From: Patescibacteria group bacterium
GTDB lineage: Bacteria; Patescibacteriota; Patescibacteriia; UBA10025; JBIOWE01
NCBI GenBank assembly: GCA_044868145.1
Contig: JBIOWE010000006.1
Span: forward strand, 14,558-78,557
DNA length: 64,000 bases
Reading direction: 5' to 3'
Under the pieces are notes generated by a model, which saw only the letters and a list, made by a program, of their open reading frames with translations, searched no databases and was not told the origin of the DNA. Below, piece by piece: positions 25,555 to 29,394 of this stretch. The stretch's first letter is position 1. Every line of letters starts with the position of its first letter. The position numbers and the translations under genes were made by a program.

Positions 25555-25667
25555 TTTGAGTGGTGTTTTTTTATCTTGACGCCTGATATATTGTTTGTTA
25601 ATGTAACAAGACGGAAAAATAAAGAGCTTTTTGAAAACTTAAGACTAAAAAGGAGGTGACTACTCTT

Positions 25668-26768
25668 TTGAAGAAGCAAAGAAAAAAATGGTCACGCGAG
25701 AAGATCATAGCAAAAATTCAGTTCCGCCGCTCAAAAGGGTGGCCACTGAACTGGCAGTATGTTAGTGATTACTGTCAAGGACTTGTATCTATGGCGCAGC
25801 ACTACTTTGGTAGTTGGCGTTCAGCGATCGAGGTTGCAGGAATAGACTATAAATCGATTTGCGATCATCTCCCACCAAATACATGGACCAAACGAACCAT
25901 CAAGAAAACCATACAAGTTCGTCACAAACTCGGCCTGCCATTAAATGGAGATAATGTCAGAAAAACGCTTCCAGGATTGATGTCAGCAGCAAGGAGAATA
26001 TTTGGTTCATGGAGGAAGACGGTGGAAGCTTCTGGCATTCGTTATGAGAGGGTGCGAGTGTTGACAGCGTGGAATAAAAGGAAGATTATTCTTGCCATCC
26101 AACGGCGGAAGCGACAGCATAAACTATTAAATGTTGGTGCCGTTATAAAAGAAGATCGGAAACTTGTATCCGCAGCTGATTTACATTTTGGTTCTTGGAA
26201 CAAAGCGCTGAAGACCGCCGGATTCAATCCTGACACAATCTACATTCACCGTGTTTGGTCAAAAGAGAAGGTCCTGAGTGTCTTGCGCAAACGAATTCGA
26301 GAAGGTAGGGCAGTCAACAGGCAAGCACTCATAGAAGAGGATATGGGCCTTCAGCAAGCGACTGACAATTACTTTGGAAGCTGGGGAAAGGCTATACGGA
26401 AACTCGGGTATGACCCAAACGCTATGAGAAAACACCATTTTTGGTCAGAGAAAGAAATCCTTCAGAAACTTAGTGTCCTGATAAAAAATGGTGAAGCGAT
26501 AGATACGATAAGTCTGTTCAAGAAAGATCCAAAATTATTCAGCGCAATTCAGGTTCATATGGGAGGGCTCCATAACGCCTTAGCCCGGTTGGGCGTCAGC
26601 TCGGAGAAGCATCTACAATATCGTGTCCCCCTAAACAAGTGGGTTCGGAACTTGAATAAAAAAGAGATGCAAGAACTCACTGGGCAAACCTTAAGAATGA
26701 TTCACTTGGAGCGTTCCTCTACACCTATTTCTCAAAGGAGGAAGGCTGGTATAAAAAAGAAAAGATAG
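25668..26768 (+). CDS. Tandem-repeat DNA-binding protein: five copies of a ~62-aa 'homing-endonuclease-associated' type repeat, no nuclease domain
   Basis: Repeats W-x-K/R-E/K-K-I-I...G-x-P-L-N...V...L..AA...FGSW..A...AGI. TTG start 25668 is inferred by parallel with the paralog: both have AGGAGGTGA...TTTGAAGAAGC upstream. The 25656 GTG lies inside the RBS. Confidence 0.55.
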   Translation: MKKQRKKWSREKIIAKIQFRRSKGWPLNWQYVSDYCQGLVSMAQHYFGSWRSAIEVAGIDYKSICDHLPPNTWTKRTIKKTIQVRHKLGLPLNGDNVRKTLPGLMSAARRIFGSWRKTVEASGIRYERVRVLTAWNKRKIILAIQRRKRQHKLLNVGAVIKEDRKLVSAADLHFGSWNKALKTAGFNPDTIYIHRVWSKEKVLSVLRKRIREGRAVNRQALIEEDMGLQQATDNYFGSWGKAIRKLGYDPNAMRKHHFWSEKEILQKLSVLIKNGEAIDTISLFKKDPKLFSAIQVHMGGLHNALARLGVSSEKHLQYRVPLNKWVRNLNKKEMQELTGQTLRMIHLERSSTPISQRRKAGIKKKR

Positions 26769-26923
26769 TTGTTAAGGATCTTTCAAAACCTCGATGATTA
26801 TATCGGGGTTTTATTTTATTATTGACACTTGACATTTTTTGAGCTAATTGTTAAAGTAGCATGAAATAAAACCTTTAACAGAGTATCTTGACAATCAAAA
26901 AGCACGAAAGGAGGTGATACCCT

Positions 26924-28003
26924 TTGAAGAAGCGAAAGTTACGCCATTGGACACCCGAGAAGATTCTGCGAATAATAGAGTATAGATCTTCAAAGGGGTG
27001 GCCACTGAATGCTAACCATGTACAGGATCATTGCGGCGGATTGTACATAGCTGCTGTGAGGCATCTTGGAAGCTGGCAAAATGCACTCGCAAAGGCCGGT
27101 ATTGATTATCGTAGTGTTTACAAACAGTTCCACGGAATTTGGAATAAAAAGTCTGTAGTTCAGGCAATTAGAAAAAAATATCGAGCCGGAGAACCGATGA
27201 ATTATCAACATGTGCTGGAACACCAAGGATTTCTCCTTTCTGCCGCCATCAAGAAATTCGGTGCGTGGCGTAAAGCGGTGCTCGCCGCTGGTATCTCATA
27301 TCAGGATGTTGCCGTAAAACGTCTTTCCGGTTATTGGAACGAGCGCTCATTTAAGAGGGCAGTTCGGAAAATGTATGAAGAAGGAGAGGCTCTCAATCCA
27401 GGCTACATAATGAAACGCCATGCGGGGATGTTCGGTTTCGCCAATCGCACCTACGGATCATGGAGAAAAGCTCTCTTTGTGATCGGTATCAAGGATTACG
27501 ACAACGTTCTTGTCCTTCAGCAATGGACGAAGGCAAAGGTCATTAAGTGTATTCTAAAAAGGTGGAAAGAAGTTAAGAGCCTTGACCAGAAAGAATTGGA
27601 GAAAGAGGACATGCCATTGTTCGGGGCAGCCCAGAAATATTTCGGCAGTACCGTTCGAGCGCTTCTAGCAGCTGGGCTCGATCCGAATACAGTCAGGACA
27701 CGAAAGCGATGGACCAGGGCAAATATCCTTGCCGAGCTTCGCGACCTTGTCTTCGCTGATCATGAACCTATTGACGCAGGAAGTTTGCTGCGAAGACACC
27801 CCTCATTACTAAGCGCTATTAATAAACATTGCGGGGGGCTTCGCAACGCGTTTGCAATGCTTGGCCTAGAACCAAAAAAGTATCTTTTAGCCGACTTGCC
27901 GATAGAAGACTGGGTGCGATCACTAAGTAACAACGAATTTGCAAGAGTTATCAAAGAAACACAGAAAATGATTGCAATCGAACAAAGAAAGGAGAAAACA
28001 TGA
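26924..28003 (+). CDS. Tandem-repeat DNA-binding protein, paralog of 25668-26768 (five repeats)
   Basis: Same repeat architecture (SSKGWPLNANHVQDHCGGLYIAAVRHLGSWQNALAKAGIDY, etc.). Its stop codon overlaps the next ATG (ATGA). Confidence 0.55.
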   Translation: MKKRKLRHWTPEKILRIIEYRSSKGWPLNANHVQDHCGGLYIAAVRHLGSWQNALAKAGIDYRSVYKQFHGIWNKKSVVQAIRKKYRAGEPMNYQHVLEHQGFLLSAAIKKFGAWRKAVLAAGISYQDVAVKRLSGYWNERSFKRAVRKMYEEGEALNPGYIMKRHAGMFGFANRTYGSWRKALFVIGIKDYDNVLVLQQWTKAKVIKCILKRWKEVKSLDQKELEKEDMPLFGAAQKYFGSTVRALLAAGLDPNTVRTRKRWTRANILAELRDLVFADHEPIDAGSLLRRHPSLLSAINKHCGGLRNAFAMLGLEPKKYLLADLPIEDWVRSLSNNEFARVIKETQKMIAIEQRKEKT

Positions 28004-29394
28004 AGCAGGAAGATCAGTATGCAATCAAGTATTTACCCATCGAGGACATTGAACAAACACTGAAACAACCTCGAGAGACATTTGAAGCAGAGCCATTGGA
28101 TGAGCTTGCGAAGTCAATAAAAGACAAAGGGCTGCTTCAACCAATCATTGTAAGACAGAACGGCACGAAGTACGATGTCGTAGTCGGGGGTCGACGTATT
28201 AAAGCCGCGGCGATAGCAGGGCTGCGAGAAATCCCTGTAATTATTGCGGATGTATCTACATCAGAAGCTTTTGAACTCGCCCTTATTGAAAACGTCCAGC
28301 GAGAAGACCTCACGTTTTTTGAGGAGGCAAACGCGCTCTTGCATCTCATGCGGTCTGGAGATTTTAATAACGCTGATGATTTGGCTGAACGGATTGGAAA
28401 GAACAGATCCTTCATAGTGAGCAGACTGAAACTTCTCCAGTTGCCGGAATCCATTCAAACAATGGTTGCGGAAAAGAAACTTGGTATCTCACACGCGGTC
28501 GCCTTGACGAAATTGCCCGATAAGAAACGTCAAGAAGCCACGGCTAAAATTGTCGCGAAGGATCGTCTGACGCTCACAGAGACACAGAGTCTTGTTTTGA
28601 AGAAAACAGGGTCCCTTGTTCGGCGCTATAAAGTAGCAGAGACGAACTCGCCCATTGCGATTCTCGAACGGCTACACAACTATCTAACCCTTGTAGCAAA
28701 TTTAGATTGGAGCCAGGAAGGAAAGATTACCCAGAAAGGTTTGAGAGAAAACTTGGAGAGGGTTGCGCGCAGCTTATTAAACGTTGCGGAGCTTCTCGCT
28801 AAGGGTTCCCCTGCCGAGGAAACGAGGGAGTTCTTGCAAAAAACAAATAAATCAGTAAGTGCGCAACTCAAGATTCTGGGTTTAACGAACCATTGCGAAC
28901 AAGCACGATGGCACTTGCGACGGTTTGATTTTTCCGGGGTGAACCTCGAAGACACTCAACGAATAGCAGAAGTTCTACAGGCACTCCGTCAATTGATAGA
29001 TCTTCGATTAAAGAATCTGCCGCTCCGAAGAGTCAAGGAAGCAAAGAAATCTGCGAGTAAACAGCGTCCAAGCGATAAGTCCTTTGTATCCCCCGATCAT
29101 GTTTTGCGGACTATTTGTGACCAATATGGCATTTCGCTCAAACGGTTTTTGAGCCCCGAGCGAACTGAAGATTTGATCACTGCTCGGCAAATTGCCGCTT
29201 ATATCTTACGCGAGGACTTGGGCCTTACATTTCCTAACATCGCAAAAAAACTGAATAGGGCTACCCATCTAACTGTTATGTATGGCCATGAGGTTATCCA
29301 GGCAGCGATCAAGAAAAATAAGGATTTGCGTATCAATCTTAGTTCGCTCCGAGAAAAGATCTTCGGACCAGCGGTGCAAGTGAAGGATGGGTAA
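28000..29394 (+). CDS. ParB-like protein (ParB N-domain plus HTH) fused to a DnaA domain-IV DNA-binding domain
   Basis: ParB box I LAKSIKDKGLLQPIIVRQ; box II/CTP-arginine patch VVVGGRRIKAAAIAG; ParB HTH NRSFIVSRLKLLQLPESIQTMVAEKKLGISHAVAL. The C-terminus ERTEDLITARQIAAYILREDLGLTFPNIAKKLNRATHLTVMYGHEVIQ aligns with DnaA domain IV ([44 protein letters not shown]). Confidence 0.65.
   Translation: MKQEDQYAIKYLPIEDIEQTLKQPRETFEAEPLDELAKSIKDKGLLQPIIVRQNGTKYDVVVGGRRIKAAAIAGLREIPVIIADVSTSEAFELALIENVQREDLTFFEEANALLHLMRSGDFNNADDLAERIGKNRSFIVSRLKLLQLPESIQTMVAEKKLGISHAVALTKLPDKKRQEATAKIVAKDRLTLTETQSLVLKKTGSLVRRYKVAETNSPIAILERLHNYLTLVANLDWSQEGKITQKGLRENLERVARSLLNVAELLAKGSPAEETREFLQKTNKSVSAQLKILGLTNHCEQARWHLRRFDFSGVNLEDTQRIAEVLQALRQLIDLRLKNLPLRRVKEAKKSASKQRPSDKSFVSPDHVLRTICDQYGISLKRFLSPERTEDLITARQIAAYILREDLGLTFPNIAKKLNRATHLTVMYGHEVIQAAIKKNKDLRINLSSLREKIFGPAVQVKDG

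Follow-up and report, generated by a model that had tools for sequence, protein, structure and literature searches.

ParB-type cytidine triphosphate (CTP) switches have long been seen as segregation proteins, and two of them, KorB and BisD, have lately been shown to act as sliding clamps that regulate transcription together with a partner (KorB-KorA, PMC11790492; BisD-BisC, PMC12409273). In KorB-KorA and KorB-TrbA of RK2 (PMC11790492, PMC13584720), a ParB-family CTPase clamp with a helix-turn-helix (HTH) domain is held by a separate DNA-binding partner, and ParA is not needed for the regulatory role. BisD of ICEclc, an integrative and conjugative element (ICE), is a ParB-like CTP clamp that has a unique extra domain and a partner, hydrolyses CTP, possesses defined bisS sites and activates distant promoters (PMC12409273). 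Here we compare with these systems a locus of a Patescibacteria group bacterium (GenBank assembly GCA_044868145.1), located in a stretch of 64,000 nucleotides of contig JBIOWE010000006.1 (hereafter the window), where two genes for proteins made of HNH_repeat units (genes A and B) precede a gene for a ParB-like protein that ends in a DnaA domain IV (gene C):

25668 to 26768, + strand, gene A: HNH_repeat-only protein of 366 amino acids (aa), isoelectric point 10.8 (open reading frame [ORF] list, Pfam and alignment to orthologs)
26924 to 28003, + strand, gene B: HNH_repeat-only protein of 359 aa, isoelectric point 10.1 (ORF list, Pfam and AlphaFold2 model)
28000 to 29394, + strand, gene C: ParB-like/DnaA-domain-IV chimera of 464 aa (Pfam, NCBIfam and Foldseek)

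The three ORFs lie where an earlier note, made from the sequence of the window, had placed them, and genes A and B are paralogs, as it held (tblastn E value 1e-70, 36.5% identity). We infer that the locus is a ParA-independent module built on a ParB-type CTP switch, a clamp regulator of the KorB/BisD kind and not a ParABS segregation machine, and we put the probability of this reading at roughly 45%.

Related cassettes were found at seven distinct loci: the window (also L001), a Komeilibacteria genome (GCA_002787405.1; L002-5/L093), L006/7, L008/9, L010, L011, and L012. Together they define a subfamily of eight ParB proteins (P0001-P0007 and P0155). An ortholog of the repeat proteins lies immediately 5' of the ParB gene in all seven, frequently overlapping it; the earlier note had counted a lack of co-occurrence of the homologs as a refutation, and they co-occur at every related locus. 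As a control we took the 80 ordinary ParB loci among the matches listed from a profile scan of genome contigs with the subfamily alignment, and all loci were scanned with hidden Markov models (HMMs) of the cassette proteins and of Bacillus subtilis Soj. ParA is adjacent in 73 of the 80 control loci and in none of the cassette loci, whereas a repeat-family protein or the ParB mid-domain described below appeared in none of the controls (0/80) and a repeat protein in all cassettes. The absence of a parA partner, already claimed from the sequence, thus extends from the 64 kb of the window to every cassette flank.

In five of the seven loci a gene for a sigma-70-like protein comes directly 3' of the ParB gene, either abutting it (L002, L012) or starting 12 to 17 nt after its stop codon (L006, L008, L011). 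The product is an acidic protein of 498 to 516 aa with regions 1.2, 2, 3, and 4 and a unique N-terminus of ca. 210 aa; besides this gene, L006 has a distinct RpoD-like one. The source genome departs from this scheme in having a duplicated repeat gene, no adjacent sigma gene and a ParB with the extra DnaA_C domain. Gene C forms a singleton cluster, and its next-best matches (P0002-P0007, ca. 350 aa, 36 to 40% identical) have the helical mid-domain and lack DnaA_C. Komeilibacteria and “Patescibacteria group” metagenome-assembled genomes supply the closest ParB homologs, and the module has so far been found only within one small clade, whose members are Patescibacteria-like.

The domains of gene C are arranged as follows:

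28024 to 28299, + strand: ParB_N CTPase-fold domain, aa 9-100 (PF02195, E value 2e-28; predicted local distance difference test score [pLDDT] >90)
28303 to 28602, + strand: HTH_ParB DNA-binding domain, aa 102-201 (PF17762, E value 2.5e-20; Foldseek matches to ParB, Noc, and KorB)
28612 to 29049, + strand: subfamily-specific helical domain, aa ~205-350, at the place of the canonical C-terminal dimerization domain (conserved in P0001-P0007 and P0155)
29092 to 29292, + strand: DnaA domain IV, Bac_DnaA_C at aa 365-431, within a wider match to DnaA models at aa 338-454, nt 29011 to 29361 (Pfam, NCBIfam and PDB matches)

The first 200 aa resemble chromosomal ParB and Noc. They match the ParB/Noc models of NCBIfam (TIGR00180, E value 2.5e-45), the structural model is confident over aa 1-205 (pLDDT ~90), and Foldseek pairs this part with the CTPase and HTH structures of ParB, Noc, and KorB at 34 to 42% identity. 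The Box I, GxxR and ENxQR motifs of chromosomal ParB/Spo0J and Noc are present and read LLQPIIVR, GGRR, and IENVQREDL. Across the subfamily the CTP-binding residues (Q47, G63, R65, R66, E97, N98, R101) are invariant apart from the glutamate of the GERR motif, here Gly64, which is G, A or S in 8/8 subfamily ParBs and E in each of the other 113 ParB hits. The E102A mutant of Caulobacter ParB binds CTP and entraps DNA but does not hydrolyze CTP, and is “clamp-locked” (PMC8367383). Because the catalytic glutamate has been lost subfamily-wide, a long-lived, slowly reopening clamp would be expected for these proteins.

Other features set gene C apart from chromosomal ParB proteins. It starts only eight residues before ParB_N, and since the ORF, from stop to stop, has no space for an additional peptide at the N-terminus, neither a ParA-activating nor a membrane-targeting one is possible. 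For Noc in particular, the membrane-targeting N-terminal helix is missing and TIGR04285 scores 188 bits on gene C against a cut-off of 315. The canonical C-terminal dimerization domain (PF23552) was not detected in gene C; instead, the model shows four long helices at aa 220-350 (pLDDT 70 to 87), for which a profile search of the PDB returned designed coiled coils only and no natural sequence relative.

These features bear on the possibility that gene C is simply the chromosomal ParB (Spo0J) of the lineage, working without ParA to load SMC and organize the origin region, with the repeat proteins as nucleoid-associated cofactors and DnaA_C as a tether to DnaA-box-like sequences. ParA-less chromosomal ParBs exist, for instance in Streptococcus pneumoniae, and besides the similarity of the N-terminal half, the housekeeping surroundings in the window and in Komeilibacteria would suit such a role, as would the lack of a second ParB in the 64 kb. 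The window genes, nearly all on the + strand, include the His-, Arg-, Ile-, Gly-, Cys-, and Met-tRNA synthetases, RecO, S4, a ClpB-like ATPase, TatD, RmuC, BipA, transfer-messenger RNA (tmRNA) and a pilin of the type IV secretion system (T4SS) type. However, the window has no more matches to canonical parS than expected by chance, which leaves room for a non-canonical site, no dnaA or dnaN was found in it, and the cumulative GC skew rises monotonically across it, with no switch. The missing C-terminal domain and the glutamate lost in all members speak against it as well, segregation hardly accounts for the tight coupling to a sigma gene in 5/7 loci, and other Patescibacteria, such as Dojkabacteria (L036) and Saccharibacteria (L084), have ordinary ParA-ParB pairs. 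We therefore consider a chromosomal ParB unlikely. More generally, a ParABS machine is disfavored because there is no ParA, no N-terminal peptide, a non-canonical C-terminal domain, a lost glutamate, an obligate partner and a frequent coupling to sigma.

The chimera itself, predicted from the sequence, is borne out by the profile comparison of its C-terminus. Bac_DnaA_C (PF08299) matches with an E value of 3.5e-15 and 56.2 bits (cut-off 31.5) over profile positions 1 to 67 of 69, and the NCBIfam model TIGR00362 matches at model positions 324 to 437 only (65.9 bits, cut-off 343.9). The C-terminus also aligns with the DnaA domain IV structures of B. subtilis, Mycobacterium tuberculosis and Escherichia coli in the PDB (E values 5e-8 to 1e-3). 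This part is poorly modeled structurally, because there is no alignment depth there. The same note had this domain replacing the dimerization domain, which has to be revised: a helical C-terminal domain of ca. 145 aa is characteristic of the whole subfamily, and DnaA_C comes on top of it in 2/8 members. The C-terminal half of gene C was also considered as a leftover of the sigma-like gene found in the relatives; this was rejected, as blastp found no similarity.

The second fusion, P0155 (466 aa; ParB_N, HTH_ParB, and Bac_DnaA_C), was sampled independently and emerged when ParB residues 203-464 were used in an exhaustive HMMER search; a word-index protein search with the 129-aa C-terminus gave no matches. 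Its locus, L012, has the full order of repeat protein, ParB-DnaA_C and sigma. The DnaA_C domains of the two fusions are only 26% identical, compared with 40% between that of the window and domain IV of a DnaA fragment (P0137). A single ancestral ParB-DnaA_C fusion followed by fast divergence is the simpler reading of these sequences, because in the repeat-protein tree the products of genes A and B cluster with that of L012 and all three share a derived unit 5, in which GG(L/I)(H/R)(N/K)A replaces FGSW. The two domains may also have been acquired independently.

A fused domain IV could point to replication control, with DnaA_C bringing the ParB clamp to DnaA boxes or titrating a partner of DnaA in the manner of HdaB, a stand-alone domain-IV protein able to regulate initiation (PMC7049699). 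The domain is a genuine, homologous helix-turn-helix DnaA domain IV, present in fusions of two divergent lineages, and it keeps the equivalents of E. coli R399 (DNA-contacting and lacking in HdaB), R407, Q408, P423, H434, and T436. Unlike DnaA, gene C has neither the AAA+ domain III nor domain I, and its domain IV is fused to ParB. Two signature, base-contacting residues are changed in the window protein, D433 to T and T435 to L (at H439 it shares a Y with M. tuberculosis DnaA); P0155 keeps RDHST. DnaA boxes in the window are at chance (12 found, 11.5 expected), and together with the absence of dnaA, dnaN, and a skew switch this leaves the origin or DnaA-box role proposed from the sequence without support in the window. 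Since 6/8 subfamily members lack DnaA_C, the domain looks like an accessory and not the core function. In addition, many stand-alone or multicopy DnaA-domain-IV proteins appeared among metagenome proteins P0133-P0142, for example arrays of five and eight DnaA_C copies, together with fusions to sigma-70 regions 2 to 4 (four copies; P0142, 1100 aa), to WhiB (two copies; P0140) and to an IS200-like Y1 transposase (eight copies; P0135). These many stand-alone, arrayed, and fused copies suggest that DnaA_C is a widely reused DNA-binding module, and a DnaA-box-directed replication regulator seems to us very unlikely.

The proposed partner proteins are composed of repeats almost throughout:

25683 to 25862, 25878 to 26054, 26064 to 26237, 26250 to 26423, and 26436 to 26606, + strand: repeat units 1 to 5 of gene A
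26616 to 26729, + strand: conserved C-terminal helix/tail of gene A
26942 to 27121, 27134 to 27313, 27329 to 27505, 27518 to 27691, and 27704 to 27877, + strand: repeat units 1 to 5 of gene B
27887 to 28000, + strand: conserved C-terminal helix of gene B

Homing endonucleases carry modular DNA-binding domains of the NUMOD type. The repeats of genes A and B had been recognized from the sequence as the kind attached to HNH homing endonucleases, and the HMM search agreed: PF18780 (HNH_repeat) is the only Pfam family in either protein (E values 7e-16 and 7e-14; 58.7 and 52.4 bits, cut-off 26), with four significant stretches in gene A and three in gene B. Neither an HNH nor any other nuclease domain was found with Pfam, NCBIfam, PHROGs or PADLOC. 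Both proteins thus share a tandem array of one repeat family with the PF18780 endonucleases, but differ from them in the missing catalytic domain, the fixed number of five units, the position-specific conservation (35% identity between units at equal positions and 28% at other positions), the conserved C-terminal helix and the obligate ParB-fold neighbor. Orthologs are collinear, with 27 to 42% identity over the full length, and share the C-terminal motif W(V/L)xSL..(I/V)..T..MI..E. In the AlphaFold2 model (pLDDT 84, predicted TM score 0.32), five units of four to five helices are strung out like beads and a long helix forms the C-terminus; the whole model gave nothing significant in a Foldseek search of the PDB. 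As strongly basic proteins (isoelectric points 10.1 to 10.8, lysine plus arginine ca. 20%) with repeated helical units, they plausibly bind DNA, these features being indirect support for their earlier description as DNA-binding proteins.

Beyond the cassettes, HNH_repeat-only proteins again turn up beside ParB folds. Three of the five distant homologs lie in cassettes of a large serine recombinase, ParB_N, ParB_N/RepB and one or two HNH_repeat proteins (L094, 1720 to 5840; L096, 243 to 5748; and the P0122 locus), sometimes followed by AbiEi/AbiEii or by DUF2924 and a second recombinase; this arrangement looks like an undescribed mobile-element module. Of the remaining two, one has a DUF932-SSB-ParB group 3 kb away, in an ICE-like region, and the other is at a contig end. 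A contig of IMG/VR has a ParB-like ORF directly 5' of a repeat protein, and ParB_N genes lie 1.6 to 3.4 kb from a repeat protein on pBc10987 and on a Brevibacillus plasmid; on a B. subtilis plasmid with a repeat protein no ParB_N gene is annotated. The plasmid cases weigh little, because ParB genes are common on such elements; the tight recombinase cassettes are harder to dismiss.

A module derived from a mobile element and later fixed in these small genomes, which might serve to maintain or regulate an integrated element or to exclude others, has to be weighed too. Apart from the associations of the distant homologs with recombinases, AbiE or DUF2924, the ICE-like region, IMG/VR, and Bacillus and Brevibacillus plasmids, recombinase and integrase genes lie near the L012 cassette and a transposase near L008, and the GC content is 0.44 at 26 to 28 kb of the window compared with ca. 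0.48 in the flanks. Against this, the cassettes of the window, Komeilibacteria, L006, and L010 are flanked by same-strand housekeeping genes with no recombinase. PADLOC gave no match for genes A and B and only a weak ParB-fold match of the ParB to a methyltransferase model, the phage collection held no homolog of the repeat proteins, and the ParB mid-domain is absent from IMG/VR. Cassette orthologs are 27 to 56% identical across loci with differing contexts, a divergence that suggests long residence rather than recent transfer. In our view such an origin is quite unlikely.

For the clamp regulator that we favor, the following sequence of events can be proposed. The HTH would bring the ParB dimer onto DNA, DnaA_C possibly providing a second anchor in the source genome, and the dimer would then close into a CTP-bound clamp, which should be long-lived and slow to reopen with the GERR glutamate missing. 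The repeat protein would bind DNA through its five HTH-like units, touch ParB through the conserved C-terminal helix, and serve as loader, lock or roadblock, as KorA and TrbA do for KorB and BisC for BisD. The output would be control of transcription or local DNA organization and not ParA-driven segregation, and in the relatives it would probably pass via the sigma factor encoded next to the ParB gene; a 2025 survey of ParB-fold fusions includes fusions with Sigma70.

The resemblance to KorB extends to weak matches, PF08535 over the HTH (a marginal 24.5 bits) and KorB structures in Foldseek (E value 2.5e-9). Gene C has no KorB C-terminal domain, and no KorA-like neighbor was found at the locus. 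In place of a small dimeric HTH repressor, the partner here would be an array of five HNH_repeat units of ca. 360 aa, and the cassette ParB differs from KorB in its C-terminal domain, the loss of the catalytic glutamate, its chromosomal Patescibacteria setting and the sigma coupling in relatives. With respect to BisD, the hydrolysis of CTP, the defined bisS sites and the location on an ICE are all points of difference, and its extra domain and partner are, as far as tested, unrelated in sequence to those of the cassette.

Several results count against the clamp-regulator reading. The link to transcription comes from the relatives, because no sigma-70 gene was found in the 64-kb window of the source genome. 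No loading site was found, as parS matches were at chance level, nor was a palindrome shared among the cassette loci. The subfamily is known from only ca. 8 protein clusters: the scan of genome contigs with the subfamily alignment brought neither new members nor the source genome itself among the matches listed, where ordinary ParBs dominated, a metagenome scan with the ParB mid-domain recovered the Komeilibacteria locus again and nothing else, and the corresponding scan of IMG/VR had no matches.

Late transcription of phage T4 is activated by a clamp (gp45-gp33-gp55). A broader proposal, which we regard as a long shot, would make HNH_repeat arrays a general and so far unrecognized class of partners for ParB-fold NTP switches, acting as site-specific loaders or locks in mobile elements and Patescibacteria; a naturally hydrolysis-dead ParB-CTP sliding clamp coupled to a dedicated sigma factor would then be a cellular counterpart of the T4 mechanism, with the DnaA-domain-IV anchor replacing the sigma link in the source genome.

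The signals for transcription and its termination around the three genes are these:

25539 to 25568, + strand: terminator-like hairpin of the upstream gene, 13-bp stem and T run, the 5' limit of the module
25576 to 25608, + strand: promoter-like region of gene A, TTGACG and TAATGT separated by 17 nt (read from the sequence), overlapping a 14-nt element, TTGTTAATGTAACA (25595 to 25608)
26785 to 26812, + strand: terminator-like hairpin after gene A
26829 to 26861, + strand: promoter-like site of gene B, TTGACA and TAAAGT separated by 17 nt, with a TG extension (consensus scan), overlapping the copy of the element, TTGTTAAAGTAGCA (26848 to 26861)
29491 to 29514, + strand: terminator-like hairpin closing the module, 10-bp stem with six GC pairs and a T run

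With a terminator of its own, gene A forms one transcription unit and B plus ParB a second, in place of the single three-gene operon first envisaged. Within the second unit the coupling that had been noted is real, with the ATG of gene C (28000) overlapping the TGA of gene B as ATGA. The TTGAC promoters claimed for both repeat genes correspond to promoter-like sites with TTGACG (A) and TTGACA (B), and only that of gene B passes a consensus scan. Likewise, the ribosome-binding and start contexts agree in having AGGAGG and TTG in both genes, with the start 11 nt (A) or 9 nt (B) 3' of AGGAGG, but the spacer from AGGAGGTGA to TTTGAAGAAGC is 7 nt in A and 5 nt in B and not 6 as given. The description as a self-contained module holds for the hairpins at both ends; evolutionarily, the module extends to the sigma-70-like gene in most relatives, which is absent here.

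The 14-nt element, TTGTTAA(T/A)GTA(A/G)CA (TTGTTAAWGTARCA), occurs just twice in the 64 kb (25595 and 26848), both times overlapping the -10-like hexamer of a repeat gene, and the copy of gene A is part of a perfect palindrome (TTGTTA-ATG-TAACAA). The element may serve as an operator, or it may simply have been left over from the duplication. All cassettes have a TTGACA-like -35 ca. 85 to 100 nt 5' of the repeat gene, and six of seven leaders have a second motif, (C/T)TTGA(C/A)AA, 25 to 35 nt 5' of the Shine-Dalgarno sequence (25630 to 25650 and 26885 to 26905 in the window; also L002, L008, L011, and L012). Automatic gene calls shorten both repeat genes to internal ATGs, giving 325 and 268 aa in Logan (L001, 7792 to 8769 and 9198 to 10004) and 316 aa in L012 (2257). 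The TTG starts are favored because of the alignment to orthologs and the strong Shine-Dalgarno sequences; L012 keeps the TTG start too.

Some neighboring genes of the window deserve mention in their own right. The ORF directly 5' of the module (24289 to 25554, 421 aa) has no Pfam or PADLOC family and does not belong to the cassettes of relatives; since its 5' end overlaps the T4SS-pilin gene on the opposite strand (23823 to 24467), translation probably begins further downstream. A double-AAA+ ORF of the ClpB/ClpC type (20934 to 23777) has an unusual N-terminal extension before Clp_N, with a zinc-finger motif of the CxxCxGxG type (CSLCHGSG...CPQCNGRG) and apparent hydrophobic segments. A gene with an NYN domain lies directly 5' of the Komeilibacteria cassette (L002, 6091 to 6774) and another in the window at 48051 to 48611, 20 kb away, probably a coincidence. 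ORFs that match no Pfam family form two runs, 44118 to 47438 (374, 516, and 149 aa), within the lowest-GC stretch of the window (0.40 to 0.43), and 51990 to 55346 (411, 274, and 425 aa). The ORF at 49496 to 50395 joins a reductase domain (RibD C-terminal) to a nuclease domain of the GIY-YIG type, an unusual combination. A gene for a histidine/aromatic amino-acid ammonia-lyase (2348 to 3937, E value 2e-185) stands among genes that otherwise serve minimal housekeeping; beside it (547 to 943) are the minus-strand tmRNA and tRNA-His.

That no described system has this architecture, as had been suspected, agrees with our literature search, which gave no match for a ParB with an HNH_repeat partner or for a ParB-DnaA_C fusion. 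The 2025 survey mentions fusions of the ParB fold to HNH and Sigma70, and neither DnaA_C fusions nor HNH_repeat partners, and in a literature search PF18780 appeared solely in a benchmark of repeat modeling. The cassette proteins are small and look soluble, so that the predictions are directly testable in vitro. If the reading is true, the uncharacterized PF18780 repeat would gain its first functional context, as a partner of the ParB fold, and the subfamily would offer a natural “clamp-locked” ParB, with the GERR glutamate lost, in which the purpose of CTP hydrolysis could be studied. It would also be a ParB clamp genetically tied to a sigma factor and to a DnaA DNA-binding domain, and the idea of ParB clamps as regulators would be extended to the chromosomes of Patescibacteria.

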